A stretch of DNA of 64,000 nucleotides from an uncultured Actinomycetes bacterium (GCA_963725665.1 CAVRZA010000001.1:416001-480000); one strand, 5' to 3'; numbered from the stretch's first letter, positions 2,396 to 29,517 are shown. A program made the numbers and translations. Notes: generated by a model from the sequence alone, not told the origin.

Positions 2396-2404
2396 GGACG
2401 TTCC

Positions 2405-4803: not shown

Positions 4804-4825
4804 GAGCCAGGAGGAGGTCCCCCAG

Positions 4826-5239: not shown

Positions 5240-6588
5240 GCCTGGCGCCGACCCGCGAGCGGCTCGCGGTCGACGACGCCGGCGGGTTCTTCTGGGAGCC
5301 TGCGGCCGAGAGCCTGCCCACGCGGGAGCTGGGCGAGCTGCAGATGACGCGCTTGCGCGCTACGCTGCAGCTCGCCCGCGAGAGGGTGCCCTTCTACCGC
5401 GAGAAGCTCGACGAGGCCGGCATCACCGTCGCTGAGGTCGACTGTCACGGGCGCGCGCAGGACCTTCCGTTCACCACCAAGATCGATCTGCGCGACCACT
5501 ACCCGTTCGCCATGCTCGCCCTGCCGCGCGAAGAGGTGGTGACCGTGCACTGCTCGTCCGGCACGACGGGCAACCCGGTGGTCGTCGGGTACTCGCGCGC
5601 CGACCTCGCCTTGTGGGCCGCGCTCATCGCGCGCACGCTGGCTGCCGGCGGTGTGGGCCCCGGTGACCTCCTACAGAACGCCTTCGGCTACGGTCTCTTC
5701 ACCGGCGGTCTGGGCTTGCACCACGGCGGCGAGCTCCTGGGCTGCACCGTGCTCCCGATCTCGGGCGGCAACACGGAGCGCCAGCTCAAGCTGATGCGCG
5801 ACTTCGGCGCCACGGCCCTTTCGTGCACGCCTTCGTATGCGCTTCACCTCGCCGAGGGGGCGCGTGATCGTGGGCTGCGGCCCGAAGACCTGCCGCTGCG
5901 CGTCGGCTACTTCGGCGCCGAGCCGTGGACCAACGAGATGCGCCTGCAGATCGAGGAGGGTCTCGGCATCGATGCGCTCGACATCTACGGCCTCTCCGAG
6001 ATGGGGGGGCCGGGAGTCGCGTTCGAGTGTCGCTGCAAGGCCGGCATGCACATCAACGAGGACCACTACCTGGCCGAGATCGTCGATCCGGAGACCCTGG
6101 AGGCGATGCCTGAGGGCGAGGTCGGCGAGCTCGTCATCACCACACTGTCGCGCGCCGCTCAGCCGCTGATCCGTTACCGCACGCGCGACCTCTGCAGCCT
6201 GATCTTCGAGCCCTGTGCGTGCGGCCGCACGCTGGCTCGCATGACCAAGCCCGTCGGCCGCAGCGACGACATGCTCATCATCCGGGGCGTCAACGTCTTC
6301 CCCAGCCAGATCGAAGAAGTCCTCATGGCCATCCCCGAGATCGAGCCGCATTACCAGATCGTCGTCGACCGCAAGGGCCACCTCGACGTCGTCGAGGTCT
6401 GGATCGAGGTCGGAGAGGACATCTTCGGCGAGACGATGGGGCAGCTCGAGACCTTCGAACGGACGGTGCAGCAGAGGCTCTACAGCGTCCTCAACATCCA
6501 GGTGAAGGTGCGTCTGAAGGAGCCGCGCACGATCGCCCGCAGCGAAGGCAAGGCGGTACGCGTGGTCGACAGACGCACGCTCGCCTGA
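5236..6588 (+). CDS. paaK: Phenylacetate-CoA ligase family protein
   Basis: LPFTTKIDLRDHYPF, SSGTTGNP, YGLFTGGLG, YGLSE, RYRTRD, GRSDDMLIIRGVNVFPSQIE. Confidence 0.93.
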   Translation: MSLAPTRERLAVDDAGGFFWEPAAESLPTRELGELQMTRLRATLQLARERVPFYREKLDEAGITVAEVDCHGRAQDLPFTTKIDLRDHYPFAMLALPREEVVTVHCSSGTTGNPVVVGYSRADLALWAALIARTLAAGGVGPGDLLQNAFGYGLFTGGLGLHHGGELLGCTVLPISGGNTERQLKLMRDFGATALSCTPSYALHLAEGARDRGLRPEDLPLRVGYFGAEPWTNEMRLQIEEGLGIDALDIYGLSEMGGPGVAFECRCKAGMHINEDHYLAEIVDPETLEAMPEGEVGELVITTLSRAAQPLIRYRTRDLCSLIFEPCACGRTLARMTKPVGRSDDMLIIRGVNVFPSQIEEVLMAIPEIEPHYQIVVDRKGHLDVVEVWIEVGEDIFGETMGQLETFERTVQQRLYSVLNIQVKVRLKEPRTIARSEGKAVRVVDRRTLA

Positions 6589-6646
6589 GCTTGCGCGAGG
6601 CGCTTCGCGCCCAGCGGGTAGGTGCGGCCGGCGGTCGTTATAATCG

Positions 6647-14121: not shown

Positions 14122-14490
14122 CTACCTACGCTCCTTGCCTCTTGGACGGTCAGACTATAGTAGGCGCGTGAACGGCCGGGCGCAACGACGCCGCCCGTGT
14201 ACGCCCAGCCTCCCGTCCGCTACCTGCGACGTCCTGTCCTGAGTGTCGTACTGCACCCCTCTGCACCGTCCGAGCTTCAGAGGAAATGCCTGCTTAGGGC
14301 GGCGACTGGGGAGATTGCAGGGGGCTCCGCCAGGCTTGCCGACGATCGACCGCCTCTGCTATAGTCCCGCTGCGCTTCGTGTTCCGCGGCACCGGCGCAA
14401 TCCTTCTTCTGTACGATGCCGACGTCCAGTTCGGGAGCCTGGTCTCATTGCGCGATGCCGCTCGATAGGTAGAATGCGCGACACCGTCTT

Positions 14491-14859
14491 ATGACCACTG
14501 CATACCTCACCAGTTGGCTGTACGTGGCAGCCTTCATGCTGTCGGGCGTCGTCATGGTCGTGGCCATACTCGCCATCTCGGCCATCGTCAATCCGAGCCA
14601 CCCGTCGGCGGTGAAGTACGCCACCTACGAGTGCGGCATCGAGCCCGTCGGCACGCCGTGGTCGCCGTTCGCCGTGCGCTACTACATCTTCGCCCTGCTG
14701 TTCCTGGTCTTCGACGTCGAGGCCGTGTTCCTGTTTCCCTGGACCCTGGTCTTCCGCGAGCTGGGGACGGCCGGCTTCGTCGAGGTCGTCTTCTTCATCC
14801 TCGTGCTCGTCGTCGGGCTGGTCTACGCCTGGCGGAAGGGGGTCCTGGAGTGGGTTTGA
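14491..14859 (+). CDS. nuoA: NADH-quinone oxidoreductase subunit A
   Basis: [36 protein letters not shown]; TAGAAT at 14470. Confidence 0.97.
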
Positions 14860-15413
14860 AGGACGGCCGCCGCTACCCCAAGCTCGAGGACTTCCAGCAC
14901 CCGAACATCATCGTCACCACCGCCGACCTGGTCTTCAACTGGGCACGTTCGCGGTCGATCTTCCCGTTCACATATGGACTCGCCTGTTGCGCCATCGAGA
15001 TGCTCTCGTCGGGTTTCGCGCGCTTCGACATCGCGCGCTTCGGCTGGGAGGTGTTCCGGCCGACGCCCCGGCAGTGCGACCTCATGATCGTGGCCGGCAC
15101 GGTCAACGAGAAGATGGCGCCTGTCCTGAAGCGCCTCTACGACCAGATGGCGGAACCCAAGTGGGTCATCTCGATGGGTGCCTGCGCCACCAGCGGGGGT
15201 CCCTTCTACGACGGCTACAACGTCGTCAACGGGGTCGACAAGATCGTCCCCGTCGACGTGTACATCCCTGGCTGCCCGCCGCGCCCTGAGGCGCTCTTCC
15301 AGGGCATGCTCGAGCTACAGAAGAAGATAAAGACGATGAGCTTCGTGAACGCGGACGGCGCGACTCCTGATGGCGCGGACGCGGCCGACGAGAGCGCGCG
15401 GAGCGCGACGTAG
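14850..15413 (+). CDS. nuoB: NADH-quinone oxidoreductase subunit B
   Basis: [30 protein letters not shown]. Confidence 0.97.
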
Positions 15414-15422: not shown

Positions 15423-15917
15423 GTGGGTCTTGAGATCGGCATCGTGCGGGCGTCCATGGACGAGATCGGGGAGCGTCTGACGGCGGCGTTCGGCGACGAG
15501 CTGAGCGATCTGCGCGTGCAGGAGCCCGACACGCTGGTCTGCCGCGTCGCCCGCGAGCACCTGCACGACGTCGCGCAGCGCCTGAAGGACCTGCCGGAGC
15601 TCGGCTACCCGACGTGCAACTGGGTCGCCGGCGTCGACTTCACGACGCACCTCGAGAGCGTCTACCACCTCTACTCCTGGAGCACCAACAGCTACCTCGA
15701 GATACACGTGGAGATCCCGCGCGACGACGCGCTGTGCGACAGCGTCTGCGACCTCTTCCCAGCGGCTGACTGGCACGAACGAGAGGCGTGGGACATGGTC
15801 GGCATTCGCTACGCGGGGCACCCCGACCTGCGCCGCATCCTGCTCAGGGACGACTTCATCGGTCATCCCTTGCGCAAGGACTACGTCGACCTGATCGAGA
15901 ACCATCCGCATGCCTGA
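15423..15917 (+). CDS. nuoC: NADH-quinone oxidoreductase subunit C
   Basis: WHEREAWDMVGI, GHPDLRRIL, GHPLRKDY. Confidence 0.95.
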   Translation: MGLEIGIVRASMDEIGERLTAAFGDELSDLRVQEPDTLVCRVAREHLHDVAQRLKDLPELGYPTCNWVAGVDFTTHLESVYHLYSWSTNSYLEIHVEIPRDDALCDSVCDLFPAADWHEREAWDMVGIRYAGHPDLRRILLRDDFIGHPLRKDYVDLIENHPHA

Positions 15918-17130
15918 GCCGATCGTCGAGTCATCCATCTTCAGCGAGGCTCCCGACGAGGCCATCAGGCTCGCCATCAGGCGGGTCATGAACGAGCAGT
16001 CGGTCAGCGACCTCGAAGGCCTCGAGCTCGACACCGTCATCGTCAACATGGGGCCGCAGCACCCCTCGACGCACGGGGTGCTGCGTCTCGTGGTCACGCT
16101 TGACGGCGAGCTGATCCGCGACGTCATCCCCGTCATCGGTTACCTGCACCGCTGCAAGGAGAAGCTGGCCGAGAAGCGCACCTACTACCAGTACATCCCC
16201 ATCATCGACCGCACCGAGTACCTCGCCAGCATGAACTGCGAGTGGGGCTACGTGATGACCGTCGAGAAGCTGGCCGGCATCCGACCGACGCGGCGGGCGG
16301 AGTTCGTGCGCGTCATCGTCGGCGAGCTGATGCGCATCGCCAGCCATCAGGTCGCCGTCGGCACCTTCGTCGCCGACCTCTCGCCACTGGGCACGGCGAT
16401 GGTCTTCTACACCTTCCGCGACCGCGAGAGGATCCTCGACCTGCTTGAGGCCGTCAGCGGGGCGCGCATGATGTTCAACTACTTCCGCTTCGGGGGCGTG
16501 CGCTTCGACCTGCCCGACGGCTGGGTCGAGAAGTGCCGCGAGGTGCTCGCCGACCTGCCCCGGCACATCGACGAGTACGAGAACCTCGTGAACGACAACG
16601 CCATCTTCCTGCAGCGCTGCATCGGCAAGGGCGTGATCACCCAGCAGGACGTCGTCGACTACGCCATCACGGGCCCCAACGCGCGCGCCTCGGGCGTCGC
16701 CACCGACCTGCGCCGCACGCGGCCCTACTCGGTCTACCCGGAGCTCGACTTCGACGTCTGCTTGGGCGAGCACGGCGACGTCTACGACCGGTACAAGGTG
16801 CGCATCGATGAGATGCGCCAGTCGGTGAAGATAGTCTCTCAGTGTCTCGACATGCTGCCCAAGGGGCCGGTCCAGCTCGGCACCCTGAGGGCGCCCTACA
16901 CGCTGACGCCGCCTCCGGGCTCGGCCTACGTGGGGCAGGAGAACCCGCGCGGTGAGTACGGCACCTACATCGTCAGCGACGGCTCGCGCTACCCCTACCG
17001 TCTCAAGTTCCGCGACCCGTGCTTCATCAATCTGCAGATCTTCCCCAAGGTGCTGCGCGGCGTGAAGATCGCCGACGCCATCGCCATCTCGGGCAGCTTC
17101 GACATGGTGCTGGGAGGGATCGACCGCTAG
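15910..17130 (+). CDS. nuoD: NADH-quinone oxidoreductase subunit D
   Basis: NMGPQHPSTHGVLRL, GYLHR, ENPRGE, C-terminal IDR. No NiFe CxxC motifs. Confidence 0.96.
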   Translation: MPEPIVESSIFSEAPDEAIRLAIRRVMNEQSVSDLEGLELDTVIVNMGPQHPSTHGVLRLVVTLDGELIRDVIPVIGYLHRCKEKLAEKRTYYQYIPIIDRTEYLASMNCEWGYVMTVEKLAGIRPTRRAEFVRVIVGELMRIASHQVAVGTFVADLSPLGTAMVFYTFRDRERILDLLEAVSGARMMFNYFRFGGVRFDLPDGWVEKCREVLADLPRHIDEYENLVNDNAIFLQRCIGKGVITQQDVVDYAITGPNARASGVATDLRRTRPYSVYPELDFDVCLGEHGDVYDRYKVRIDEMRQSVKIVSQCLDMLPKGPVQLGTLRAPYTLTPPPGSAYVGQENPRGEYGTYIVSDGSRYPYRLKFRDPCFINLQIFPKVLRGVKIADAIAISGSFDMVLGGIDR

Positions 17131-18410
17131 TGGACCCCGCTCCCCGCAACCGGTTCCGCTATTGGCAATGGCTCCTGTTGGTCGCGCTCCTGGCCCTGGC
17201 GCTGGCCTGCCTTCTTCTCTACGCGATCGTGAAAGCGCCGCCGGGAGGCATCTGGAGCGCTATCGAGCCGTTCGTGCGCGCCGGCGTGGCGATCCTGATC
17301 GCGTACGCCGTCGTCTTCGTCGCGGCGCTCGTCAATATCCTCTTCGAGCGCCGCACGCTCGCCTTCATGCAGGACCGCCTGGGGCCCAACCGCACGGGGC
17401 CGCAGGGCGTCTTCCAGAGCATCGCCGACGCCCTCAAGATGATGGGCAAGGAGGACTTCTCGCCGGCGAAGGCCGACAAGATCCTCTTCACGCTGGCGCC
17501 GCTAATGGTGATGATCGGCGCCGTCTCCGTGCAGCTCGTGATCCCCTACACCAAGGGCTGGACGGGTCAGGACCTCAACGTCGGCCTCATCTACCTCGTC
17601 GCGATCACGAGCTTCACCGTGCTCTCGATCCTCGTCGGCGGCTGGGCCTCGCACAACAAGTACTCGCTCGTCGGGGCGCTGCGCGCCGGCGCGCAGATGG
17701 TCTCGTACGAGATCCCCATGATCCTCGCGCTGCTCGCCGTGGGCGCCATCGTCGGGTCCTGGAGCCTCAACGCCGTCGTGGCGTGGCAGGAGCACTACCA
17801 TTGGCTGATCTTCTACGCGCCGTTCACCTTCCTCCTCTTCTACATCGCCTCGATCGCCGAGCTGAACCGCGGCCCGTTCGACCTGCCCGAAGGCGAGTCC
17901 GAGCTGGTCGCCGGCTACAGCACCGAGTACGCCGCCATGCGCTTCGGCATGTTCTACCTCAACGAGTACGCGGGCATGACCATCATGTCGATGATCGTCG
18001 TCACGCTGTTCTTCGGCGGCTGGGAAGGCCCCTTCGCCGACGCTCTTACGATCGGCGGCGTCGCTGTCGTGCCGCTGCTCTGGTTCCTTCTCAAGACCTA
18101 CATCCTCGTGTTCGCCCTCGTGTGGGTGCGGCTCTCGCTCCCCCGCCTGCAGGTCGACCAGCTCATGAGCTTCGCCTGGAAGATCCTCATCCCCCTCGGC
18201 CTCGCCAACATCGGCGTGGTGGCGGCGATCATCCTCTGGGCGCCGCAGTGGAAGCTCTCCCTGGCCGCATACGGCTGGGTGGCGCTGCTGCTGTTCGTCG
18301 GTCTGTTCGACCCGGTCTTGCGCTGGCGGCTGCGCCGCCAGCGCGAACGGCAGCCCAAGGTGACCGAGGGCGCCGTCGGCATCGCATCGAGCGCGGCGGT
18401 GGGTGAGTAA
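17130..18410 (+). CDS. nuoH: NADH-quinone oxidoreductase subunit H (extra N-terminal hydrophobic segment)
   Basis: ERR...MQDRLGPNR, DALK, AQMVSYE, RGPFDLPEGESELVAGY, LPRLQVDQ. Confidence 0.96.
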   Translation: MDPAPRNRFRYWQWLLLVALLALALACLLLYAIVKAPPGGIWSAIEPFVRAGVAILIAYAVVFVAALVNILFERRTLAFMQDRLGPNRTGPQGVFQSIADALKMMGKEDFSPAKADKILFTLAPLMVMIGAVSVQLVIPYTKGWTGQDLNVGLIYLVAITSFTVLSILVGGWASHNKYSLVGALRAGAQMVSYEIPMILALLAVGAIVGSWSLNAVVAWQEHYHWLIFYAPFTFLLFYIASIAELNRGPFDLPEGESELVAGYSTEYAAMRFGMFYLNEYAGMTIMSMIVVTLFFGGWEGPFADALTIGGVAVVPLLWFLLKTYILVFALVWVRLSLPRLQVDQLMSFAWKILIPLGLANIGVVAAIILWAPQWKLSLAAYGWVALLLFVGLFDPVLRWRLRRQRERQPKVTEGAVGIASSAAVGE

Positions 18411-19168
18411 TGCTCGGCATGCTCAAGGCTATGCGCCAGACGATCGGCCATCTCGGGCAGAAGAAGATCACCGTGCAGTACCCCGACGAGCGCGAGCAGC
18501 TCGCCGAACGCAGCCGCGGTCTGTTCCGCGTAGTGGTCGACCCGACGAGCGACGACGCCCGCTGCCGGTCCTGCACCCTCTGCGAGACGAACTGCCCCGT
18601 GCAGGTCATCCGCGTCAACTACACCTCCAAGTACAAGCTGCCGCTGCCGAACCAGGCGCGCATCACCGAGCGCCGTCTCGACTCACAGCCCCAGGTCGAC
18701 CTCACACGACTCGATCCCATCGTCGAGGGCTACTTCGCCAGCGGCACTGGCATGATTGGGGTCTTGCAGCACACACAGGAGGAGTACGGGTACCTACCGC
18801 GCGCGGCGCTGCACGCGATAGCGCAACGCACCGGCACCTCGCTTGCGCAGATCTACGGCGTGGCGAGCTTCTACAACCAGTTCCGGCTGAGCCCGGTGGG
18901 CAAGTACTTGATCACCGTCTGCCAGGGCACCGCCTGCCATGTCGCCGGGGCGCCGTTGGTGACGGCCGCCTTCTCGGAAGAGCTCGACATCGCGCTGGAC
19001 GGCACCACCAAGGACCGCCTCTTCACCCTGCAGGCGGTCAACTGCGTGGGCGCCTGCGCCCTCGCGCCCGTCGTGAGGGTCGGCGATGACGATACCTACG
19101 GACGTATGACGCCCGACCTCGCGCGCAAGCTCGTGCGCGACCTGCGCGCGCAAGAGGGGCTCGAATGA
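18410..19168 (+). CDS. Fusion of the NuoI N-terminal half and a NuoE/HydC-like [2Fe-2S] subunit
   Basis: Residues 1-70: ITVQYPDERE...RSRG...CRSCTLCETNCP (NuoI-like, one motif only). Residues ~100-252: LQHTQEEYGYLP...GVASFY...VCQGTACHV...CVGACALAP. Confidence 0.9.
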   Translation: MLGMLKAMRQTIGHLGQKKITVQYPDEREQLAERSRGLFRVVVDPTSDDARCRSCTLCETNCPVQVIRVNYTSKYKLPLPNQARITERRLDSQPQVDLTRLDPIVEGYFASGTGMIGVLQHTQEEYGYLPRAALHAIAQRTGTSLAQIYGVASFYNQFRLSPVGKYLITVCQGTACHVAGAPLVTAAFSEELDIALDGTTKDRLFTLQAVNCVGACALAPVVRVGDDDTYGRMTPDLARKLVRDLRAQEGLE

Positions 19169-21072
19169 GCACGACGAGCGTGCGCGAGAAGCAGATCGGC
19201 GCCGCCCTGGAGCGCGCCTTCCACCCCGACGAGGTCGTGATCCGCGACGACCGGCGCGAGGTGCGGCTCTGCGCCGGCACGGCCTGTCACGCCTCGGGTC
19301 GCGTGGCCGTGCGCGAAACGTTCAAGGAGGAGCTCGCCGCGCACGGCTTGGGCGACGTCGCGGTAGTCGAGACGGGCTGCCACGGCTTCTGCGACCAGGG
19401 GCCGATCGTCGTCCTCCAGCCGCAGGGCATCTTCTACCCGCGCGTGAAGGCCAACCAGGTGGCCAAGATCGTCGAGGCGAGCATCGCCGGCGACGGCGTC
19501 GTCGACAGGCTCCTCTACAAGGACCCGACCACCGACGAGCCGATCCCCTTCGAGAAGGACATCCCCTTCTACTCACGACAGAAGCGTCTCGTCCTTGCCA
19601 TGAACGGCAAGGTGAACCCCTACTCCATCGACGACTACCTCGCGCGCGGCGGCTACCGCGCCCTGGCCAAGGTGCTCGCCGACGATGAGCCCGACGACGT
19701 CATCGAGCTCGTCGAGGACTCGGGTCTGCGCGGGCGCGGCGGCGCCGGCTTCTCGACGGGCACCAAGTGGCGCCTGGCGCGCCAGGCGCCGGGCGCGCTC
19801 AAGTACGTCATCTGCAACGCCGACGAGGGCGACCCCGGCGCCTTCATGGACCGCTCGGTCTTGGAGGGCAACCCGCACTCGGTGGTCGAGGGCATGCTGA
19901 TCGCCGCCTTCGCCATCGGCGCGACGGAGGGTTACGTCTACGTGCGCGCCGAGTACCCCTTCGCCGTCGAGCGCCTGGAACGGGCGCTCGTCCAGGCGCG
20001 CGAGCGCGGTCTCCTCGGCGACGACATCCTCGGCTCCGGGTTCGCCTTCGACGTGCACATCAGCCAGGGCGCCGGCGCCTTCGTCTGCGGCGAGGAGACC
20101 GCGCTCATGGCCTCCATCGAAGGCCGCCGCGGCATGCCGCGCACGAGGCCGCCCTACCCGGCCATCGAGGGTCTCTGGGGCAAGCCGACCAACATCAACA
20201 ACGTCGAGACCTACGCCAACGTGCCCTGGATCGTCAACAACGGCGCCGACGCCTACGCGGCCATGGGCACGGGCACCGCCAAGGGCACCAAGATCTTCTC
20301 GCTCACCGGCAAGATCAAGAACGGCGGCCTCGTCGAGGTGCCCATGGGTGCCACGCTGCGCGAGGTGATCTTCGGCGTCGGCGGCGGTATGCTGCCGGGC
20401 CGCGAGTTCAAGGCGGTGCAGCTCGGCGGGCCCTCGGGCGGCTGCCTGCCCTCCTCGCACCTCGACACGCCCATCGACTACGAGACGATGACCGCCTCCG
20501 GCGCCATCGTCGGCTCCGGCGGCATGGTCATCGTCGACGACACGACCTGCATGGTCGACCTGGCGCGCTACTTCCTGCAGTTCTCCCAGGACGAGAGCTG
20601 CGGCAAGTGCGTCCCCTGCCGCCTTGGCACCAAACGTATGCTCGAGGTCCTCGAGCGCATCTGCGCGGGGGAGGGGCGCGAGGACGATATCGAGCTGCTC
20701 GATGAGCTCGCGCACTACATCGTCGACGGCACGCTCTGCGCGCTCGGCGGCACGGCACCCAACCCCGTGCTCACGACGCTGCGCTACTTCCGCGACGAAT
20801 ACGAGGCGCACATCTTCAACAAGGAGTGCCCGGCTGGTGGCTGCAAGGCGCTCATCACCTACTACATCGACGCGGATGCCTGCACCGGCTGCACCCTGTG
20901 CGCCAAGAAGTGCCCCACCGAATGCATCTCCGGTGAGAAGAAGCTGACGCACGTCATCGACACGAGCCTCTGCATCAAATGCGACACGTGCCGTCAGGTC
21001 TGCAACTTCGGCGCCGTGAAGGTCTACTCGGGCAAGGACGCGCAGATGCCGAGCCTGGCGAAGGAAGCGTAG
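19165..21072 (+). CDS. nuoF: NuoF/HydB-type FMN/NADH subunit with N-terminal [2Fe-2S] and C-terminal 2x[4Fe-4S] domains
   Basis: CAGTAC...GCHGFC, SGLRGRGGAGF, NADEGDPGAFMDR, GAGAFVCGEETAL, GGPSGG, ESCGKCVPCR, CTGCTLCAKKCP / CIKCDTCRQVC. Confidence 0.93.
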   Translation: MSTTSVREKQIGAALERAFHPDEVVIRDDRREVRLCAGTACHASGRVAVRETFKEELAAHGLGDVAVVETGCHGFCDQGPIVVLQPQGIFYPRVKANQVAKIVEASIAGDGVVDRLLYKDPTTDEPIPFEKDIPFYSRQKRLVLAMNGKVNPYSIDDYLARGGYRALAKVLADDEPDDVIELVEDSGLRGRGGAGFSTGTKWRLARQAPGALKYVICNADEGDPGAFMDRSVLEGNPHSVVEGMLIAAFAIGATEGYVYVRAEYPFAVERLERALVQARERGLLGDDILGSGFAFDVHISQGAGAFVCGEETALMASIEGRRGMPRTRPPYPAIEGLWGKPTNINNVETYANVPWIVNNGADAYAAMGTGTAKGTKIFSLTGKIKNGGLVEVPMGATLREVIFGVGGGMLPGREFKAVQLGGPSGGCLPSSHLDTPIDYETMTASGAIVGSGGMVIVDDTTCMVDLARYFLQFSQDESCGKCVPCRLGTKRMLEVLERICAGEGREDDIELLDELAHYIVDGTLCALGGTAPNPVLTTLRYFRDEYEAHIFNKECPAGGCKALITYYIDADACTGCTLCAKKCPTECISGEKKLTHVIDTSLCIKCDTCRQVCNFGAVKVYSGKDAQMPSLAKEA

Positions 21073-21076
21073 GCTC

Positions 21077-23674
21077 ATGGCGACCACCCAGGAACGCGTG
21101 CACGAGATGGCGCCGCAGCTACGCCCCGACCAGATCGCGCTCACGATCGACGACCAGGAGATCGCCTGCGACAAGGGTGACAGCATCCTCGAGGCGGCGC
21201 AGAAGGCCGGCATCCACATCCCGACGCTCTGCTACGAGCCGCGTCTGCCGGCCAACGCCGCCTGTCGCGTCTGCATGGTCGAGGTCGAGGGCGCGCGCAA
21301 GCTGGCGGCGAGCTGCGCCACGGCGGCCGCCGACGGCATGGTGGTACGCACCAACACCGAGAAAGTGCGCCAATTGCGTCACCTTTACCTGGAGCTCCTC
21401 CTCTCCGACCACAACTCCTTCTGCACGCCGCCGTGTCGCGACGCCTGCCCGACGCACATCAAGATCCCGCAGTTCCTCGACTTCATCGCCCACGGCGACT
21501 ACAAGAACGGCGTGCGCAAGCTGCGCGAGGACCTGCCCTTCCCGGCGATCCTCGGGCGCGTCTGCCCGCGGCCCTGTGAGGGGCCCTGCCGGCGCCAGCT
21601 CGTCGAGCACCCCATCACCATCTGCTGGCTGCACCGTTTCATGGCCGACCAATGTATCGACGAGGAGCAGACGGGGGAGCTCCTCCTGCCGGTCGACCCC
21701 AAGCCCGACACCGGCAAACGCATCGCCGTCGTCGGCGGCGGGCCCGCCGGCCTCGCCTGCGCCTTCTACGCCCGTCTCGAGGGGCACGCCGTCAAGGTCT
21801 TCGAGGCGCTGCCCAAGCCGGGCGGCATGCTGCGCTACGGCATCCCCAGTTACCGCTTGCCGCGCGACCTGATCGAGAAGGAGCTCAACGTCCTCTGGCG
21901 CATGGGCATCGAGCTGCAGGTGAACAGCCGCCTGGGCGAGCACTATCAACTCGAGGACCTCCTGGCCGTCTACGACGCCGTCTTCCTCGGCCTCGGCGCC
22001 TTCAACTCCAATGAGATGGGCGTCGAGAACGAGGACGCCGACGGCGTCGTGACCGCGGTCGACTTCCTCGGCGAGCTCGAGCTCACCGGCAGCGTGCACG
22101 TGGGTCAGAAGGTCACCGTGATCGGCGGCGGCTTCACGGCCATGGACGCCTGCCGCACCGCGGTCCGCATGGGCGCGAAAGAGGTCACGTGTCTGTACCG
22201 CCGCTCGCGCAAGGAGATGCCGGCTCACCACACCGAGGTCGACGAGGCCGAGGAAGAGGGCGTGCGCCTCGAGCTGCTTACGGCGCCGGTGAAGATCCTC
22301 ACGGACGACGACGGCAGGGTCACCGGCATCGAGATGCTGCGCATGGAGCTCGGCGAGCCCGACGCCTCGGGTCGGCGCCGACCGGTGCCCATCGAGGGAT
22401 CGAACTACATCGTCGAGTGCGACCAGGTCATCACCGCCATCGGCCAGTTCCCCAAGCTCGACGGTACGAGCGAGGAGCAGGGCGTCAAGCGCACCAAGTG
22501 GAAGACCATCGACGTCGACGAGTGGAGCTATCAGACGGAGGACCCGAGGGTCTTCGCCGGCGGCGACGTGGTGCTCGGCGCCCAGACGGTGATCCAGGCC
22601 GTCGCGCAGGGCAAGAAGGCGGCCTGGAGCATCGACGCCTTCTTGCGCGGCGAGGAGATGCAGCGCGTCTCGCAGGACCTCGCCGAGCTGCACGGCACAC
22701 CGTTCATCGCCGCGCTCTCGGCGAAGTCCGACCTCGACCCGCGCGTCTCGCGCATGGCCGAGATCCCGCCGGTGTTCATCGACATGACGACCGACGTGAG
22801 CCACCCCGAGCCGCCGGCCGAGATGCCCAAGCTGGCGCCCGAGGAGCGGAGGACCAACTTCGAGCAGATCGAGCTGGGCTTCGCGGTGGACGAGGCACGG
22901 CGAGGGGCCGGCCTCTGTCTCGACTGCTACTGTCCCGCGAACGGCACCTGCGACCTGCAGCGCTACTCGATCGACTACGAGGTCTTCAAGAACCGGTTCC
23001 ACGGCCAGGAGGCGCACGACTACCCGGCCGACTTCCGCCACGACTTCATCATGCGCGAGCCCAACCGCTGCATCAACTGCATGCGCTGCGTGCGCATCTG
23101 CCGACTCGAGGTCGGCGCGAGCTGCTACGACGCCATGGGGCGCGGCTACGACACGATCGTCTCGACGGCCGACAACTTGCCGCTGCAGATGGTCGGCTGC
23201 GTCTCGTGCGGCAAGTGCGCCGAGACCTGCCCGACCGGCTCCATCGAGACCAACCCGCGCCTGCTGGCGAGCTACGACCTCGACGAGAGCCGCTGCATGT
23301 TCTGCGGCGAGTGCGTCGAGGTCTGCCCCTACGACGCGCTGGAGCAGACCGACTTCTTCGAGCTCGCCGGCTACGACCGCGGAGCGCTCGCCGGTGAGTC
23401 GCTCTACGTGCGTCAGGCGAGGTCGGTCGACCCGCTGCGCGAGACGGTCACCGACCTCGTGCCGCACGTCTCCGACGTCCTCGGCGGCGAGGGCTGGCAA
23501 TGGACGCCCATCAAGGCCGAAGAGGCTGGGGCGGACGGCGCGGCGGCCGGGAGCAACGGCAAGCCGGCGCCGGCGCCCGCCGAAGAGCCGGCGCCACCGG
23601 CGCCCGAAGTCGTCGCCGACGGGGCGGCCGGGGACGGCGACGGCGCCGGGACGGACCAGGAGAAGGCCGACTGA
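21077..23674 (+). CDS. NuoG-like Fe-S / GltD(NfnB)-like FAD-NADPH oxidoreductase fused to the NuoI C-terminal half
   Basis: IPTLCY..ACRVCMVE..SC ([2Fe-2S]); CTPPCRDACP, GRVCPRPCEGPCRR, GGGPAG, GGGFTAMD, YRRS, AGGD; CINCMRCVRIC and CVSCGKCAETCP; then SYDLDESRCMFCGECVEVCPYDALEQTDFFELAGYDR. Confidence 0.9.
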   Translation: MATTQERVHEMAPQLRPDQIALTIDDQEIACDKGDSILEAAQKAGIHIPTLCYEPRLPANAACRVCMVEVEGARKLAASCATAAADGMVVRTNTEKVRQLRHLYLELLLSDHNSFCTPPCRDACPTHIKIPQFLDFIAHGDYKNGVRKLREDLPFPAILGRVCPRPCEGPCRRQLVEHPITICWLHRFMADQCIDEEQTGELLLPVDPKPDTGKRIAVVGGGPAGLACAFYARLEGHAVKVFEALPKPGGMLRYGIPSYRLPRDLIEKELNVLWRMGIELQVNSRLGEHYQLEDLLAVYDAVFLGLGAFNSNEMGVENEDADGVVTAVDFLGELELTGSVHVGQKVTVIGGGFTAMDACRTAVRMGAKEVTCLYRRSRKEMPAHHTEVDEAEEEGVRLELLTAPVKILTDDDGRVTGIEMLRMELGEPDASGRRRPVPIEGSNYIVECDQVITAIGQFPKLDGTSEEQGVKRTKWKTIDVDEWSYQTEDPRVFAGGDVVLGAQTVIQAVAQGKKAAWSIDAFLRGEEMQRVSQDLAELHGTPFIAALSAKSDLDPRVSRMAEIPPVFIDMTTDVSHPEPPAEMPKLAPEERRTNFEQIELGFAVDEARRGAGLCLDCYCPANGTCDLQRYSIDYEVFKNRFHGQEAHDYPADFRHDFIMREPNRCINCMRCVRICRLEVGASCYDAMGRGYDTIVSTADNLPLQMVGCVSCGKCAETCPTGSIETNPRLLASYDLDESRCMFCGECVEVCPYDALEQTDFFELAGYDRGALAGESLYVRQARSVDPLRETVTDLVPHVSDVLGGEGWQWTPIKAEEAGADGAAAGSNGKPAPAPAEEPAPPAPEVVADGAAGDGDGAGTDQEKAD

Positions 23675-24183
23675 TGCCGGGCGGCGATTTCCACCCCGTG
23701 CTCTTCACGCTGACGGCGGCCTGGGTGCTGGCCTGCGGCATCGGCGTCGTCGCCTTCCGCAGCATCGTGCGCTCGGCCGTTTCGATGGTCCTCTGCTTCG
23801 TCGGCGTCGCCGGTATCTACGCCCTGCTCTACGCGCCGCTCCTGGCGATCATCCAGCTGCTCGTCTACGTCGGCGCCATCTCGGTCGTCATCATCTTCGC
23901 CATCATGCTCACCCCGGCGCAGAGCGGCGACGTGCGCCTCTTCTTCAACCGCCAGAGCCTCTTCGCGCTGCCGCTGGCGATCGCCACGGCCGCGCTCCTC
24001 ATCGTCGTGCTCGTGACCTCCGCCATCCCCGGCGTGACGTCGAAGGCCCACGGGGTCGACCTCAAGACCTTGTCGGACCTGCTCTTCAACCAGTACGTCT
24101 TCCCCTTCGAGCTCGTCTCGTTCGTGCTCCTGGCGGCGATGATCGGCGCCATCGTCCTGGCGCGCAAGGAGGAGTCGCGGTGA
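23674..24183 (+). CDS. nuoJ: NADH-quinone oxidoreductase subunit J
   Basis: QLLVYVGAISVVIIFAIML, YVFPFELVS. Confidence 0.95.
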   Translation: MPGGDFHPVLFTLTAAWVLACGIGVVAFRSIVRSAVSMVLCFVGVAGIYALLYAPLLAIIQLLVYVGAISVVIIFAIMLTPAQSGDVRLFFNRQSLFALPLAIATAALLIVVLVTSAIPGVTSKAHGVDLKTLSDLLFNQYVFPFELVSFVLLAAMIGAIVLARKEESR

Positions 24184-24500
24184 GTGCCGTCGACTGGTAT
24201 CTCGCTCTCGCCACGGCTCTCTTCTGCATCGGGGCCTACGGGGTGCTCGCGCGGCGCAACGTGCTGCTCGTCGTGATGAGCCTCGAGCTCATGCTGAACG
24301 CGGTCAACATCGCGCTCGTCGCGTTCGCCACCTTCATCCCGGCGACGCGCCCCATCGACGCCTCCAAGGGGCAGCTCTTCGTCCTCTTCGTGATCGCCAT
24401 AGCCGCCGCCGAGGTCACCGTGGGCCTCGCCATCGTGATCGCCAACTACCGCACCAAGCGTAACGTGCAGGCCGATCAGTTCGACCAGATGAAGGGGTAG
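24180..24500 (+). CDS. nuoK: NADH-quinone oxidoreductase subunit K
   Basis: RRNVLLVVMSLELMLNAVN, AAAEVTVGLA. Confidence 0.96.
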   Translation: MSAVDWYLALATALFCIGAYGVLARRNVLLVVMSLELMLNAVNIALVAFATFIPATRPIDASKGQLFVLFVIAIAAAEVTVGLAIVIANYRTKRNVQADQFDQMKG

Positions 24501-24534: not shown

Positions 24535-26430
24535 ATGAAGGCAGCCGTCGCGCTGATAGCCCTGCTGCCGCTGGCCGGCTTCGCGATCAACATCTTGCTC
24601 GGGCGGCGCTACATTCGCGACCGGGCGCACCTCGTCGGGGTGGCCACCGTCACCGTCTCGTGGGTGCTCTCGCTGTACGTCATCTACCACGCCTTCACCC
24701 ACCAGGAGGAGGCCTTCGTCTGGGACGCCTTCACCTGGATCAAGGCCGGGTCGTTCACCGTCAGCTGGGGCTTCCTCGTCGACGACCTCACGGCGATCAT
24801 GCTCGTCGTCGTGGGCACGATCGGCATGATCGTGCACTACTACTCGATCGGCTACATGAAGGACGACGAGGGCTACTACAGGTTCTTCGCCTACCTGAAC
24901 CTCTTCATGTTCATGATGTTCACCCTCATCCTGGCGGACAACTACCTGCTGGTCTTCCTCGGCTGGGAGGGCGTGGGTCTCTGTTCCTACCTGCTCATCG
25001 CCTTCTGGTTCCGCAAGAAGAGCGCCTCGCAGGCGGGCAAGAAGGCGTTCCTGGTCAACCGCGTGGGGGACTGGGGCTTCACACTCGGGATGCTGGCCAT
25101 CTTCTTCACCTTCGGCAGCCTGCAGTTCCCGGAGGTGTTCGGCAAGGCGGCCGAGGCCAACGGCGGCCTCCTCACCTGGATCTGCCTGCTGCTCTTCATC
25201 GGCGCGGTGGGCAAGAGCGCCCAGTTCCCGTTGCACGTGTGGCTGCCCGACGCGATGGAGGGTCCGACGCCGGTCAGCGCCCTGATCCACGCCGCGACGA
25301 TGGTCAACGCCGGCGTGTACATGGTCGCGCGGTCGTACCCGCTCTTCATCCACTCGCACACGGCGATGCTGATCGTCATGGGCGTGGGCACCTTCACGGC
25401 GATCTACGCCGCCTCCATCGCCATCACGCAGACCGACATCAAGCGCGTCATCGCCTACTCGACGGTGTCGTCGCTGGGCTTCATGTTCATGGCTTTGGGC
25501 GCCGGCGCCTGGGTGGCCGGCATCTTCTATCTGTTCGTGCACGGGTTCTTCAAGGGCCTCCTCTTCCTCGGCTCGGGCTCGGTGATCCACGCCATGTCGG
25601 GCGAACAGGACATGCGCAAGATGGGTGGGCTGCGCAAGAAGTTGCCGGTGACGTTCTGGACGATGATGATCGGCTCGCTCGCCAACGCCGGCCTCTTCCC
25701 GTTCGCCGGCTTCTGGGCCAAGGACGAGATCCTGGGCGTGGACTTCACGCAGGGGTACTACGTCGTGTGGGTGGTCGGGATCATCGTCGCCTTCCTCACG
25801 GCCGTCTTCATGTTCCGTCTGATGTTCCTGACCTTCTGGGGCGAGAACCGCGCCTCCGAGGAGGTGCAGCACCACATCCACGAGTCGCCGAGGATCATGA
25901 CGGTGCCGCTAATCATCCTCGCCGTGCCGGCGGCACTGGCCGGCATAGTGGTCGGCTGGCCGCCGGAGGGCGGCTGGATCCACGGCTTCCTAGAGCCCGT
26001 GTTCTACGAGGTGGAGTCGGAGGCGTTCGCGTGGTTCGGCACGGGCGGGCTGCTCATGGCTATCTCGCTCGTCGTCGTCATCGTCGGCATAACGCTCGCC
26101 TGGACCATGTACGTGCGCGACAAGCGACTGCCGGCCGCCCTCGTTGAGCGCGTCCCGTGGGCCTACCGCGCCTCGTTCCGCAAGTTCTACATGGACGAGC
26201 TCTACGAGGTCGCCGTCATCAGGCCGGTTCTCAACGGCGCCAACTGGCTCTGGGTGTTCTTCGACACGAAGGTGATCGACGGGACGGTCAACGGTATCGC
26301 GGCGCTGTGGGGATGGATCGGCACGACGCTGCGGCCGCTGCAGACGGGGCGGGCGCAGAACTACGCCTTCGGCATCTTCGCCGGGGTCTTCGTGCTCGTC
26401 ATCGTCTTCCGTTGGGTGTGGGGAGGCTGA
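24535..26430 (+). CDS. nuoL: NADH-quinone oxidoreductase subunit L
   Basis: GWEGVGLCSY, GKSAQFPLHVWLPDAMEGPTPVSALIHAATMV. Confidence 0.97.
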   Translation: MKAAVALIALLPLAGFAINILLGRRYIRDRAHLVGVATVTVSWVLSLYVIYHAFTHQEEAFVWDAFTWIKAGSFTVSWGFLVDDLTAIMLVVVGTIGMIVHYYSIGYMKDDEGYYRFFAYLNLFMFMMFTLILADNYLLVFLGWEGVGLCSYLLIAFWFRKKSASQAGKKAFLVNRVGDWGFTLGMLAIFFTFGSLQFPEVFGKAAEANGGLLTWICLLLFIGAVGKSAQFPLHVWLPDAMEGPTPVSALIHAATMVNAGVYMVARSYPLFIHSHTAMLIVMGVGTFTAIYAASIAITQTDIKRVIAYSTVSSLGFMFMALGAGAWVAGIFYLFVHGFFKGLLFLGSGSVIHAMSGEQDMRKMGGLRKKLPVTFWTMMIGSLANAGLFPFAGFWAKDEILGVDFTQGYYVVWVVGIIVAFLTAVFMFRLMFLTFWGENRASEEVQHHIHESPRIMTVPLIILAVPAALAGIVVGWPPEGGWIHGFLEPVFYEVESEAFAWFGTGGLLMAISLVVVIVGITLAWTMYVRDKRLPAALVERVPWAYRASFRKFYMDELYEVAVIRPVLNGANWLWVFFDTKVIDGTVNGIAALWGWIGTTLRPLQTGRAQNYAFGIFAGVFVLVIVFRWVWGG

Positions 26431-26432: not shown

Positions 26433-28020
26433 GTGAGCTGGCAGGACCAGGTGGGCTTCCCGCTCCTCTCTGTGATGACCTATCTGCCCCTGGTGGGCGT
26501 GGCGCTCATCGTGTTGTTCGCCAAGGATCGCCCAGGTCTCTACAAGCCGATCTCCCTGGTGACGACCGTGCTCGCCTTCATCCTCTCGGCCGTCATGCTG
26601 CTGCGCTTCGACACCGGGCGGCCGGGCATGCAGTACGCGCGAGAACGTCGTCTGGATCAAGAGCCTCAACATCCACTACGGCATGGGTGTCGACGGCATC
26701 GCCGCCCTGCTGATCTTCCTCACCACGCTGCTGGGCTTCATCGTCATCATCTCGAGCTGGAACTACGTGAAGGATCGCGAGCGCGGCTTCTTCGTCTCGC
26801 TGCTGCTCCTGCAGACCGGGATGGTCGGCGTCTTCTGCGCCACCGATATCTTCCTCTTCTACGTGTTCTGGGAGGCCATGCTGATCCCGATGTACTTCAT
26901 CATCGGGGTCTGGGGCGGGCCGCGAAAGATCTACGCCGCCATCAAGTTCTTCCTTTTCACCTTCGCCGGCAGCGTGCTGATGCTGGTCGCCATCATCGCC
27001 ACGGTCTACTACGTGAAGGGCCAGACCGGTCAGCTCACGTTCAACATCCAGGAGCTGACGCGGCAGGTCTATCCCTACCACCTGCAGTTCTGGGCCTTCC
27101 TGGCCTTCTTCGTGGCCTTCGCCATCAAGGTACCGATGTGGCCGCTGCACACCTGGCTGCCCGACGCGCACGTCGAGGCGCCCACGGCGGGTTCCGTGAT
27201 CCTGGCGGGAGTCCTTCTGAAGATGGGCGGGTACGGCATGCTGCGCTTCAACCTGCCGATGTACCCCGACGCCGCCGTGACGTTCGTGCCCTGGGTGATC
27301 GCTCTGAGCGTCATCGCCATCCTGTACGGCGCCCTGGTCTCGATGATGCAGAAGGACCTGAAGAAGCTGGTGGCTTACTCGAGCGTGAGCCACATGGGGT
27401 TCGTGACGGCAGGGATCTTCGCTGGCATCGCGCTGGTAGGCAACAGCGCCGGTATGGAGGGGGCCATTCTGGTCATGTTCAACCACGGCATCCTCACGGG
27501 CGCCCTGTTCCTCATGGTCGGCTTCCTCTACGAACGCACGCACACGCGCGATATCGCGGCCATGAGCCAGCTCGCCAAGCCGCTGCCGGTGCTGGCCGGC
27601 TTCTTCCTCTTCTTCACCCTGGGGTCGCTCGGGCTGCCGGGCCTGAACGGGTTCGTGGGCGAGTTCCTCAGCCTGCTGGGCCTGTTCAACTACTCGCGCG
27701 CCACGGCGGCCATCGCCGGCATCGGCGTTATCCTGGCCGCCGCCTATCTGCTGTGGATGTTCCAGCGCGTACTGTTCAACGACCGCGGTGACGCCGACGT
27801 CATGCCGGACTTCCACCTGCGCGACTTCTCGCTGCGCGAGATCGCTTCGGTGGTGCCGCTCGTCGTGTTCGCCGTCTGGGTCGGCGTCTATCCCCAGCTC
27901 TTCCTGAACCTGCTGCACGTGCCGGTGCAGCAGATCATCGACAAGGTGACGCCGTCGCTCGCCGGCGGCCAGAGCCACGGGCTGGCGCAACTGTTCGACG
28001 TCACGAGAGGGCTCTTCTAG
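26433..28020 (+). CDS. nuoM: NADH-quinone oxidoreductase subunit M (one frameshift near 26640, probably an assembly error)
   Basis: N-terminal frame VSWQDQVGFPLLS...GMQYA, then ENVVWIKSLNIHYGMGVDG...HTWLPDAHVEAPTAGS in the next frame. Confidence 0.93.
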
Positions 28021-29517
28021 ATGAACAACTCGCTGACGCTGATCCTGCCCGGCCTCGTCGTCGCCGTCGTCGGCCTGGTGCTCTTCCTCGTCGAGGCGTT
28101 CGTGTCGGCCAAGCGCGCGCTGGCCTACATCGCCGCCGCCGGCCTCGCGGTCGCCGGGGTCCTTGCCGTGCTGCAGTGGCTTCAGCTACGTGGCAGCCTC
28201 GCGCTGCCGCTCCTGCGGCAGTGGAAGGCTGCCACAGCGGGCTTCAACCAGATGGTCGCCCTCGACCGTTACGGCCTCTTCTTCACGGTCCTCTTCTGCG
28301 CCGTGGGCATCGTCACCATCATGCTCTCCGATCGCTACCTCGATCTGCATCGTGCCTCGCGGGGCGAGTTCTACGGACTACTGCTTCTGATCGTCTCGGG
28401 CATGATCGGCATGGCCATGGCGACCGACACCGTGACCCTGTTCGTGTCGTTCGAGCTCATGTCGCTGCCGACCTACGTCATGGCCGGCTACCTGCGCGGC
28501 TCGGAGCGGTCGGGCGAGGCCGCCATCAAGTACTTCCTCAACGGCGCCTTCTCGTCGGCGATCCTCCTCTTCGGCCTGGCCCTGCTGTACGGTCTCACCG
28601 GCGCCACGAACTACAGCTCGATCGCCGCCGGGTTGCAGCACCTCGAGAGCGGCAACGGCGCGCTCGTCGTCGCGCTCGTTCTGGTCGCGGCCGGCTTCGG
28701 CTTCAAGATCTCGGCGGTGCCCTTCCACGGCTGGGCGCCCGACGTCTACGAAGGCGCCCCGACGCCGGTCACCGCCTTCATGGCCGTGGGGGTCAAGGCG
28801 GGCGCCTTCGCCGGCCTGCTGCGCTTCTTCACGGTGGCCGTGCTGCCCGCCTGGGACGTGTGGTCGAACATCCTCATCGTGCTCGCCGTGCTCACGATGG
28901 TGATCGGGAACGTGCTCGCGCTGCCGCAGCGCAACCTCAAGCGTATGCTCGCCTACTCGAGCATCGCCCACGCCGGCTACCTGCTGCTGGGGGTGATCGC
29001 GGCCGGCCGCCAGCCCGAGGGCAACGGCGGCAGCGCCGTGCTCTTCTACCTCGCCGCCTACGCGTTCATGAACCTGGGCGCCTTCGGGCTGCTGGTGCTC
29101 GTCCGCAACCGGCGTCCTTTCGGCTACACGCTCGATGAGATCGCCGGGCTGTGGCGCAGCATGCCCTGGACGTCGATCGCCATGGCGGTCTTCATGATCT
29201 CGCTCACCGGCATCCCGCCGACCATCGGCTTCTGGGCCAAGTTCTACATCTTCACGGCTCTTATCGACGCCCACCTGACCTGGCTCGCCATCGTGGCCGT
29301 GGTCATGGCTGCCGTGTCCTCGTTCTACTACCTGCGCGTGGTCTGGTACCTCTTCTTCCGTGAGCAGGAGGGCGAGCAACCGCTGCCGGTCGCGGCTACG
29401 ACCGGGACGGCCGCCGCCGTCGTCGTCACGGCGCTCGGCGTGCTCCTTGTGGGTCTCTACCCGTCCTGGCTGCTCGACGCGGCGCAGAGTGCGCTGCGTC
29501 TGGTGATCGGCGGATAG
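28021..29517 (+). CDS. nuoN: NADH-quinone oxidoreductase subunit N
   Basis: EAAIKYF, FKISAVPFHGWAPDVYEGAP, KRMLAYSSIAHAGY. Confidence 0.97.
   Translation: MNNSLTLILPGLVVAVVGLVLFLVEAFVSAKRALAYIAAAGLAVAGVLAVLQWLQLRGSLALPLLRQWKAATAGFNQMVALDRYGLFFTVLFCAVGIVTIMLSDRYLDLHRASRGEFYGLLLLIVSGMIGMAMATDTVTLFVSFELMSLPTYVMAGYLRGSERSGEAAIKYFLNGAFSSAILLFGLALLYGLTGATNYSSIAAGLQHLESGNGALVVALVLVAAGFGFKISAVPFHGWAPDVYEGAPTPVTAFMAVGVKAGAFAGLLRFFTVAVLPAWDVWSNILIVLAVLTMVIGNVLALPQRNLKRMLAYSSIAHAGYLLLGVIAAGRQPEGNGGSAVLFYLAAYAFMNLGAFGLLVLVRNRRPFGYTLDEIAGLWRSMPWTSIAMAVFMISLTGIPPTIGFWAKFYIFTALIDAHLTWLAIVAVVMAAVSSFYYLRVVWYLFFREQEGEQPLPVAATTGTAAAVVVTALGVLLVGLYPSWLLDAAQSALRLVIGG

Follow-up and report, generated by a model that had tools for sequence, protein, structure and literature searches.

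The 64,000-nucleotide stretch of DNA analysed here (the window; CAVRZA010000001.1:416001-480000 of assembly GCA_963725665.1, from an uncultured Actinomycetes bacterium) encodes on its plus strand a respiratory complex I operon in which nuoI is cut in two and each half is fused to a subunit of a flavin and iron–sulfur module. The cluster runs nuoA, B, C, D and H, then three open reading frames (ORFs), then nuoJ, K, L, M and N. The inserted ORFs encode P0001 (18410-19168, 252 residues), P0002 (19165-21072, 635 residues) and P0003 (21077-23674, 865 residues), and an ORF scan between nuoH and nuoJ found neither an intact nuoI nor any further NuoI-like ORF. We consider it probable, from the sequences and their conservation, that the locus encodes a working complex I variant belonging to one Thermoleophilia family, in which a BfuABC module lies inside nuoI and clusters N6a and N6b are built in trans. 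A preliminary description of the window had reported the absence of intact nuoI at its canonical position, the in-frame run from a NuoI N-terminus into NuoE, the NuoI second half with a proline-, alanine- and acid-rich tail at the end of the third ORF, and the tight packing of the genes; all of these observations held, as did its overall picture of a split nuoI with both halves fused to a three-gene module, whose domains we could read and whose layout is conserved in relatives.

Two halves of one NuoI

The N-terminal half of NuoI (N-half) occupies residues 1-74 of P0001 (18410-18631), of which residues 9-74 match positions 3-66 of the 121-position NCBIfam NuoI model TIGR01971 (45.1 bits, E 6.7e-12). 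It comprises an N-terminal helix, the sequences TVQYPDE and RSRG, and a lone cysteine motif, C52-x2-C55-x2-C58-x3-C62-P63 (18563-18598). A linker with no family match (residues 75-103, 18632-18718) leads, within the same polypeptide, to the thioredoxin-like [2Fe-2S] domain of NuoE and BfuC (18719-19168; PF01257, 149 bits, residues 104-245). The C-terminal half (C-half) lies at residues 726-771 of P0003, which match TIGR01971 positions 69-114 (54.8 bits for the protein), and continues as a conserved NuoI-like extension to residue 811 (23252-23509); its own lone motif is C740-x2-C743-x2-C746-x3-C750-P751 (23294-23329). The variable tail and stop codon of P0003 follow (23510-23674) and include a 24-nucleotide tandem repeat of two copies. 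Rather than the two CxxCxxCxxxCP motifs per polypeptide by which NuoI is recognised, one motif is found on each of two proteins, and the two pieces jointly span TIGR01971 without overlap and with a NuoI-specific N-terminus.

Comparison with solved structures and with the genome's own NuoI supports the same assignment. For the first 95 residues of P0001 the top 31 rows are all NuoI, NDUFS8 or TYKY chains, with alignment to residues 8-71 of Thermus Nqo9, and the best single stretches for the last 151 residues of P0003 are the second motifs of NdhI and NuoI, with alignment to Nqo9 residues 73-129. The window genome also encodes a canonical nuoA-N operon (contig C4, locus L010 2900-19000, minus strand) with NuoEFG and an intact NuoI that scores 149.2 bits on TIGR01971; its subunits are 33-52% identical to those of the split operon. 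A haem-copper oxidase subunit I gene lies at C4:585010-586350, about 20 kb from this canonical operon. By tblastn the N-half falls on L010 9452-9258 of the intact nuoI (38% identity) and the C-half on 9251-9096 (35% identity), and because the two are adjacent with just two codons between them, the cut lies in the loop between the two cysteine motifs. A MAFFT alignment of the halves with intact NuoI placed both on motif 1, an internal-repeat effect, and the model and BLAST coordinates are used here instead.

In 2x[4Fe-4S] folds each cluster is coordinated by three cysteines of one motif and a single cysteine of the other, and a lone motif therefore cannot hold the normal cluster pair. The two extra motifs occur together in all 18 complete loci (14/14 of the complex I, or Nuo, type and 4/4 of a 2-oxoacid:ferredoxin oxidoreductase, or OFOR, type described below) and in 0/13 generic NfnABC loci. 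All eight cysteines of the lone motifs are invariant, among 40 aligned homologues for the N-half and 42 for the C-half. The halves are among the best conserved regions of their proteins, with mean identities of homologues to the window of 78% for the N-half and 86% for the C-half, compared with 53% for the linker (the minimum within P0001), 90% for the iron–sulfur chain of P0003, and a P0003 tail that is at least half filled in just 8 of 41 homologues, at 26% identity. The co-occurrence of the lone motifs, the invariance of their cysteines, the conservation of the halves and their status as sole copy in some genomes strongly imply that N6a and N6b are assembled in trans between the P0001 and P0003 fusions.

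The layout recurs well beyond the window. Among the best 120 homologues listed for P0001, query coverage is at least 92% and identity 61-100%, and the best 120 listed for P0003 share its length and architecture; several of the listed homologues are labelled Thermoleophilia at source. In species-representative genomes nuoH lies immediately upstream of the N-half fusion in 19/19 Nuo-type loci, and the C-half is followed by nuoJ to nuoN in all 14 that extend that far. Our survey of the class sampled 401 genomes. Of the 79 other genomes from the window's own family (f1), 67 have the full-length fusion, defined by a listed match from residue 1 of P0001. The eleven remaining families, with 321 genomes, have none listed; one unpublished genome (G344) belongs to this latter tally and is counted there alone. 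Intact NuoI is absent from 37 of 80 other f1 genomes. We checked five of these, which are 97-100% complete and include one assembled as a single 1.66-Mb contig, and in all five the NuoI model is matched best by the two halves, separated by about 4.8 kb. Every ORF of the split operon is intact in the closed genome G014, and short-read contigs from four DNA runs in three studies span each gene junction and both fusion joints; the runs listed for the locus included no RNA run. The genome search and read-support check proposed in the preliminary description thus returned a recurrent nuoH-to-nuoJ arrangement in f1 and no chimera. Since the layout recurs in 67/79 family genomes, provides the sole NuoI in five and has its junctions bridged in three studies, it is no artefact.

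Further variants extend this picture. A second lineage, P0248 (41% identity, lysine-rich), and its relative P0415 carry the same fusion of NuoI N-half to NuoE on two Logan contigs only, and a metagenome scan for the gene context of P0248 returned nothing. A close unsplit sister operon was not found in the neighbouring family f4, where even the closest NuoD relatives share just 42-50% identity. In P0171 and P0187, whose sequences we read, and in P0188, seen as a Pfam list only, the gene call continues in frame, with no stop, from the C-half into NuoJ, which may reflect an indel error or a true triple fusion.

The inserted module and its predicted electron path

The three inserted genes encode what is, on domain content, an Nfn/Stn-type BfuABC module, a member of the Bfu family of flavoenzymes that bifurcate electrons, whose subunit A has its C-terminal domain swapped for the NuoI C-half and whose subunit C has gained the NuoI N-half. 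P0002, the BfuB-type NuoF, has an N-terminal [2Fe-2S] domain (residues 31-105), a flavin mononucleotide (FMN)/NADH domain, an SLBB domain, the NuoF [4Fe-4S] site and a C-terminal 2x[4Fe-4S] ferredoxin domain (566-617), with Pfam matches to PF01512, PF10589, two copies of PF00037, an N-terminal PF01257, and SLBB PF10531 at 25.1 bits, under its 27-bit cut-off. The Bfu family is defined in the main text of PMC9304861 by a BfuB with FMN domain, SLBB, NuoF [4Fe-4S] and ferredoxin-type 4Fe-4S, together with a NuoE-like BfuC, and P0002 and P0001 show these features. The best solved relatives of P0002 are full-length BfuB chains, from bifurcating hydrogenases or NfnABC/StnABC, at 746-861 bits (7t2r_B at 861, 8oh5_B, 9n5u_B), whereas canonical NuoF reaches at most 415 bits and is confined to residues 138-549. 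One relative, P0151, is a 1473-residue gene call with BfuB and BfuA domains, an apparent fusion of the two subunits.

P0003 is closest among solved chains to NfnA and StnC (9bov_A at 625 bits, 8oh5_C, 9n5u_A), with residues 18-747 of its 865 aligning to residues 5-700. Its N-terminus carries a Fer2_4 [2Fe-2S] domain (residues 19-94, 21077-21358; PF13510, 73 bits), which is followed, as in NfnABC/StnABC, by a GltD/NfnB-like insert (residues 116-526, 21422-22654; PF14691, PF07992, TIGR01316 at 380 bits) with two [4Fe-4S] sites and flavin adenine dinucleotide (FAD) and NAD(P)H Rossmann folds. The iron–sulfur chain (22916-23233; PF22117 Fer4_Nqo3, Fer4_7) then comprises a four-cysteine site, C614/C617/C619/C625, and a HoxU/NuoG-like 2x[4Fe-4S] domain with C665...C675 and C708...C718-P, and all 12 of its cysteines are invariant in 42 sequences. 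In place of the C-terminal NuoG/Fdh-like domain of NfnABC/StnABC, P0003 has beyond residues 725-747 the NuoI C-half and tail, the C-half beginning 21 residues past the last cysteine of the 2x[4Fe-4S] (A2/A4) domain; solved NfnA/StnC chains are about 960-1180 residues long, compared with 865 in P0003.

We infer the electron path from solved Bfu enzymes. In the available text of PMC12318220 and PMC12018979, the clusters in the N-terminal domain of BfuA are arranged as a Y around A2, with Nfn and NiFe enzymes feeding through the A3 branch and FeFe and Wor enzymes through the A4 branch; the C-terminal adaptor of WorA places a partner ferredoxin cluster 10.7 Å from A4, plugging WorS (PMC12318220). 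In the variant proposed here, the usual NuoEFG input module would be replaced by the Nfn/Stn-type BfuABC, its three genes lying inside nuoI. NuoI would be cut in the inter-motif loop so that the N-half, with the membrane-proximal helix and motif 1, forms the N-terminus of BfuC, while the C-half, with motif 2 and the NuoI C-terminal segment, forms the C-terminus of BfuA directly after its 2x[4Fe-4S] domain. The two halves would fold jointly into the normal 2x[4Fe-4S] NuoI fold, with N6a and N6b each ligated by three cysteines of one polypeptide and a single cysteine of the other, and the joined halves would both complete the wire and lock the module onto NuoB, C, D and H. NADH, oxidised at the BfuB FMN, and NADPH, oxidised at the GltD FAD, would both feed the central A2 cluster of the BfuA Y-junction, the GltD arm corresponding to the A3 branch as in NfnABC. 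Electrons would leave by the A4 branch through the split NuoI to cluster N2 in NuoB and on to menaquinone, powering the NuoH/J/K/L/M/N pump. Confurcation of NADH with reduced ferredoxin, as proposed for Nuo-Bfu, is also possible at the BfuB/BfuC ferredoxin site, because P0002 retains the BfuB C-terminal ferredoxin domain at which that site is reported (PMC12018979, in part). The physical plausibility of paired halves is supported by designed half-ferredoxins that dimerise and function in vivo, as the available text of PMC12648291 describes.

Sister loci and relation to known systems

The same genome carries a sister module joined to an OFOR rather than to complex I. The genes on contig C2 (locus L009 9361-17469, minus strand) run porG, porA, an N-half fused to NuoE, BfuB, and a NuoG/GltD protein fused to the C-half and to PorB. 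The NuoE-like protein has 250 residues with an N-terminal lone motif, the BfuA/GltD protein carries a third lone motif and runs on in frame into PorB, and no PorD was found in the cluster. The OFOR-type halves score as NuoI rather than PorD and lack the first 25 NuoI residues. Loci of this type also occur at L028-L031 and L091-L093 and in family f4. A BfuB tree of 31 rows, with 12 other Bfu enzymes as the root and without the long-branch rows L018 and L027, unites Nuo-type and OFOR-type sequences in one clade (100/100), within which the six OFOR-type rows form a clade (97/99) nested among Nuo-type sequences; the latter are monophyletic in 0 of 200 bootstrap trees, and a quick 66-row tree is concordant. 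On the sequences of this one gene, the OFOR version is derived from the complex I version and carried the split NuoI along, although gene conversion between paralogues could be an alternative source of the nesting.

A parallel arrangement is found for HdrA in other lineages. In two Thermoplasmata loci, L040 (9746-19505) and L052 (9695-19610), an HdrA-like protein is split between the cysteine motifs of its inserted ferredoxin domain, and MvhD and an intact HdrA paralogue adjoin the split protein in both. The start of BfuC corresponds to positions 44-150 (L040) or 17-123 (L052) of the nearby paralogue at 65% identity and includes the first cysteine motif of the inserted domain, while BfuA past its A4 motif corresponds to HdrA positions 137-1027 (L040) or 107-1001 (L052) at 52-54% identity, beginning in the second-motif region. 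A Stahlbacteria locus, L065 (4527-10409), shows in its Pfam layout only an HdrA-like N-terminal fragment with one Fer4 on BfuC and the C-terminal part on BfuA. Because the BfuB proteins of these HdrA-split loci fall outside the Nuo/OFOR clade, we conclude from sequence that the same split topology has arisen at least twice. A broader generalisation, which we offer tentatively and as something short of an even prospect, would be that placing bfuC-bfuB-bfuA between the two cysteine motifs of a partner is a recurrent, portable form of hard-wiring, used with NuoI, inherited with OFOR and independently arrived at with HdrA, in which the shared clusters act as wire and clamp at once; in complex I it would yield a four-substrate, proton-pumping enzyme that confurcates NADH and reduced ferredoxin, and accepts NADPH, onto menaquinone.

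Several elements of this architecture have precedents. Canonical NuoI/Nqo9/TYKY (NDUFS8) shares with the split protein the position between nuoH and nuoJ, the N-terminal helix, the YP-E motif, both cysteine motifs and the post-motif segment, but it is a single polypeptide; here it is two, joined to different subunits, and three genes covering 4.6 kb separate the halves. The closest proposal is Nuo-Bfu, a 14-subunit complex I with a BfuABC input module predicted in Geobacter and others by Schut et al. 2022 (main text of PMC9304861), which likewise combines a Bfu-type NuoF with extra [2Fe-2S] and 2x[4Fe-4S] clusters, a quinone-reducing, proton-pumping Nuo core and module genes in mid-cluster. 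Its 14 subunits, A to N, imply a separate NuoI and its BfuA is without GltD, whereas the present locus has 13 genes, a split and fused NuoI, a BfuA with a GltD/NADPH domain, and the module inside nuoI. The main text of PMC9304861 (supplements and clade tables not covered) makes no mention of NuoI, of a split or fusion, of GltD or of Actinobacteria. NfnABC/StnABC share the three subunits, the domain order and the placement of the GltD insert, which separates the [2Fe-2S] domain from what follows in BfuA (PMC10482914 and PMC12018979, in their available text), but are soluble, whereas here BfuC carries the NuoI N-half and the module is predicted to be membrane-bound via Nuo.

WorABCSL, as far as PMC12318220 is available, offers a precedent for electrons passing from A4 through a BfuA C-terminal adaptor to a ferredoxin-type partner; its BfuA is the N-terminal iron–sulfur domain only, plugged onto a polyferredoxin wire. 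That adaptor is a non-covalent alpha-helix, whereas here it is predicted to be half of the partner ferredoxin fold itself, with the other half on BfuC. Semidoxins (PMC12648291, in part) are likewise single beta-alpha-beta halves with one cysteine motif that must pair to hold two [4Fe-4S] clusters, but they are designed or putative natural free homodimers of about 30 residues, in contrast to the predicted obligate heterodimer within two large respiratory subunits. For the OFOR-type sister, the predicted Por-Bfu of PMC9304861 (main text) likewise joins an OFOR to NuoE/F-type or GltD-type subunits, as does the NADH-dependent phenylglyoxylate dehydrogenase PadEFGHI, known to us here by its NCBIfam name only; Por-Bfu has four separate Por subunits, whereas the C2 sister is without PorD, has a split NuoI-like ferredoxin and has PorB fused to BfuA. 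In the literature searched (supplements not covered) we found no description of a split NuoI, a NuoI-NuoE or GltD-NuoI fusion or a split HdrA, and the suggestion in the preliminary description that the architecture is undescribed stands within that scope. The attachment of Bfu modules to complex I and to pyruvate-type OFORs was already predicted in 2022 (main text of PMC9304861), and the split, fused NuoI connector is what goes beyond that prediction.

Competing explanations, operon context and significance

Several points weigh against a working enzyme with a trans-assembled NuoI. The preliminary description expected the halves to behave as one NuoI on the family model, and they do tile TIGR01971 at positions 3-66 and 69-114, but at 45.1 and 54.8 bits each alone misses the 113.05-bit family cut-off. 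It had also named a better match to generic ferredoxins as a warning sign; this is absent for the N-half, with its uniformly NuoI/TYKY top matches, but polyferredoxins (FwdF) outrank NuoI for the P0003 C-terminal piece in the solved-structure search, a lead reached by adding together as many as eight repeats, none above 22 bits. Single-chain AlphaFold2 models, built from shallow alignments of close relatives, have a predicted local distance difference test score (pLDDT) below 50 over both halves and over BfuA's own ferredoxin domain: P0001 (40 relatives) has a mean of 70, with residues 13-77 below 50 and the NuoE part at 84-96, and the mean for P0003 (42 relatives) is 62, falling below 50 throughout residues 617-865. 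Given the shallow alignments and the low score of BfuA's own domain as well, the models speak neither for nor against pairing. NuoE of canonical complex I lies far from NuoI, and here either the linker of about 30 residues must bridge that distance or the module must sit otherwise. We infer NADH and NADPH as substrates from homology only, the window genome carries its second, canonical nuo operon, and a one-nucleotide insertion in nuoM (below), if real, may make the operon copy of this assembly inactive.

These points can be read in more than one way. The same architecture might operate mainly in reverse, with proton-motive force driving menaquinol electrons into the module to yield NADPH or, by bifurcation, reduced ferredoxin. 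Such products could serve biosynthesis or ferredoxin-dependent enzymes, of which the genome has IOR-like and aldehyde:ferredoxin oxidoreductase enzymes in the window and an OFOR besides; Bfu enzymes are reversible (main text of PMC9304861), and a canonical complex I would be at hand as well. PntB is nevertheless available as a source of NADPH, and at least five near-complete genomes have no complex I-type NuoI apart from that of the split enzyme, which fits forward respiration, and we regard predominantly reverse operation as unlikely. A different possibility is that the halves never pair, the C-half being a third, incompletely or differently ligated BfuA cluster and the N-half a mere anchor on NuoH or NuoB with one cluster or none. 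The FwdF matches and the lack of a confident single-chain fold for either half would suit this, but a single CxxCxxCxxxCP gives one cluster three of its ligands and a second cluster only one, the two invariant motifs are always found together in complete loci and never in generic NfnABC loci, and both halves keep NuoI-specific flanks, TVQYPDE and RxRG on one and the post-motif segment on the other. Unpaired halves seem to us improbable. 

That the three genes make a soluble NfnABC-type transhydrogenase, merely co-transcribed with nuo genes that use another NuoI or none, is in our view very improbable: the module is indeed closest to soluble NfnABC/StnABC, but the best NfnA/StnC alignment stops at residue 747 of 865, the N-half has a NuoI-specific N-terminus, 37/80 other f1 genomes are without an intact NuoI, and only the halves fill that role in the five near-complete ones. 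An assembly chimera, frameshift artefact or decaying pseudogene, suggested by at least one indel in the window assembly and by several other ORFs that look truncated, has next to no probability given the layout's recurrence in 67/79 family genomes and 19 independent metagenome-assembled loci, the contigs of three studies that bridge its junctions, the third-position G+C content of 0.90-0.95 in all three inserted ORFs and the strong residue conservation; for the layout the artefact is refuted by the recurrence and bridging contigs.

The operon around the module supports a complete complex I core, with NuoA, B, C, D, H, J, K, L, M and N each scoring as Nuo in Pfam and NCBIfam, all in one cluster with an N2-type NuoB. 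Upstream lie nuoA (14491-14859; Pfam Oxidored_q4, 127 bits, NCBIfam NuoA), nuoB (14850-15413, start uncertain; NCBIfam nuoB_fam, 235 bits), nuoC (15423-15917; Pfam Complex1_30kDa, 137 bits, TIGR01961), nuoD (15910-17130; Pfam Complex1_49kDa, 313 bits, NuoD models 436-460 bits) and nuoH (longest ORF 17019-18410; NCBIfam NuoH, 327 bits from residue 89), whose true start is probably further downstream. NuoB contains the tandem-cysteine motif GLACCAIEM, then GACATSGGP and PGCPP, which we take to be the ligands of N2. The four junctions from nuoH through the inserted ORFs to nuoJ read TAATG, ATGA, TAG followed by four nucleotides and ATG, and TGATG, with start and stop codons overlapping or separated by a 4-nucleotide gap at each; the nuoH stop overlaps the start of P0001 and the P0003 stop that of nuoJ. 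Downstream are nuoJ (23674-24183; PF00499, 114 bits, start read at the junction), nuoK (24186-24500, start approximate; PF00420, 94 bits, and NuoK models), nuoL (24535-26430; TIGR01974, 742 bits), nuoM (26433-28020) and nuoN (28021-29517; TIGR01770, 425 bits).

Within nuoM a one-nucleotide insertion near 26638-26640 (GCGCG compared with GC-CG in four relatives) puts the first two helices in another frame, and TIGR01972 matches positions 74-485 only. The gene is in frame in 11 of 12 relatives and NuoM is intact, at 528 residues, in the closed genome G014, and the insertion may be a consensus error. A search for insertion footprints at the junctions of the module turned up nothing beyond low-identity matches of the kind common in GC-rich coding DNA and the tandem repeat of the P0003 tail, and a promoter and terminator scan gave a single promoter-like site, at 14336-14365, not above chance.

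The rest of the window and genome adds metabolic context. Besides the canonical operon, the genome encodes a [NiFe]-hydrogenase, PntB and haem-copper oxidase. At 2246-8542 the window holds a ferredoxin-linked catabolic cluster comprising an IOR/OFOR-like thiamine pyrophosphate enzyme, an ACT-domain protein, an AMP-binding (phenylacetate-CoA ligase-like) enzyme and a tungsten-type aldehyde:ferredoxin oxidoreductase. Two further ORFs match their families only in part, at 51114-51629 (aldo/keto reductase, positions 37-126 of 291) and 54809-55399 (ABC_tran, positions 88-136 of 137), and may reflect further assembly indels. The only tRNA gene of the window, tRNA-Arg(CCT), lies at 52624-52699, with a phage-integrase-like ORF about 10 kb downstream at 62583-63392.

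NuoI is a universally conserved core subunit of complex I, and every solved complex I that matches the halves has a single NuoI, NDUFS8, TYKY or NdhI chain. A natural, widespread and sometimes sole split version indicates that the NuoI fold tolerates a cut between its halves, and would make split NuoI a present-day, heterodimeric equivalent of the "half-ferredoxin" stage that has been proposed in the evolution of ferredoxins. It further suggests that redox modules may be joined by interleaving their genes inside a ferredoxin domain, beyond the use of docking surfaces, with the connector reused in OFOR and paralleled in HdrA. A complex I input module with predicted sites for NADH, NADPH and ferredoxin would also bear on confurcation by Bfu enzymes and on how complex I acquired its N-module. 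The hosts, soil and peat actinobacteria, are common in peat and wetland metagenomes, and the enzyme may matter for redox balance there.

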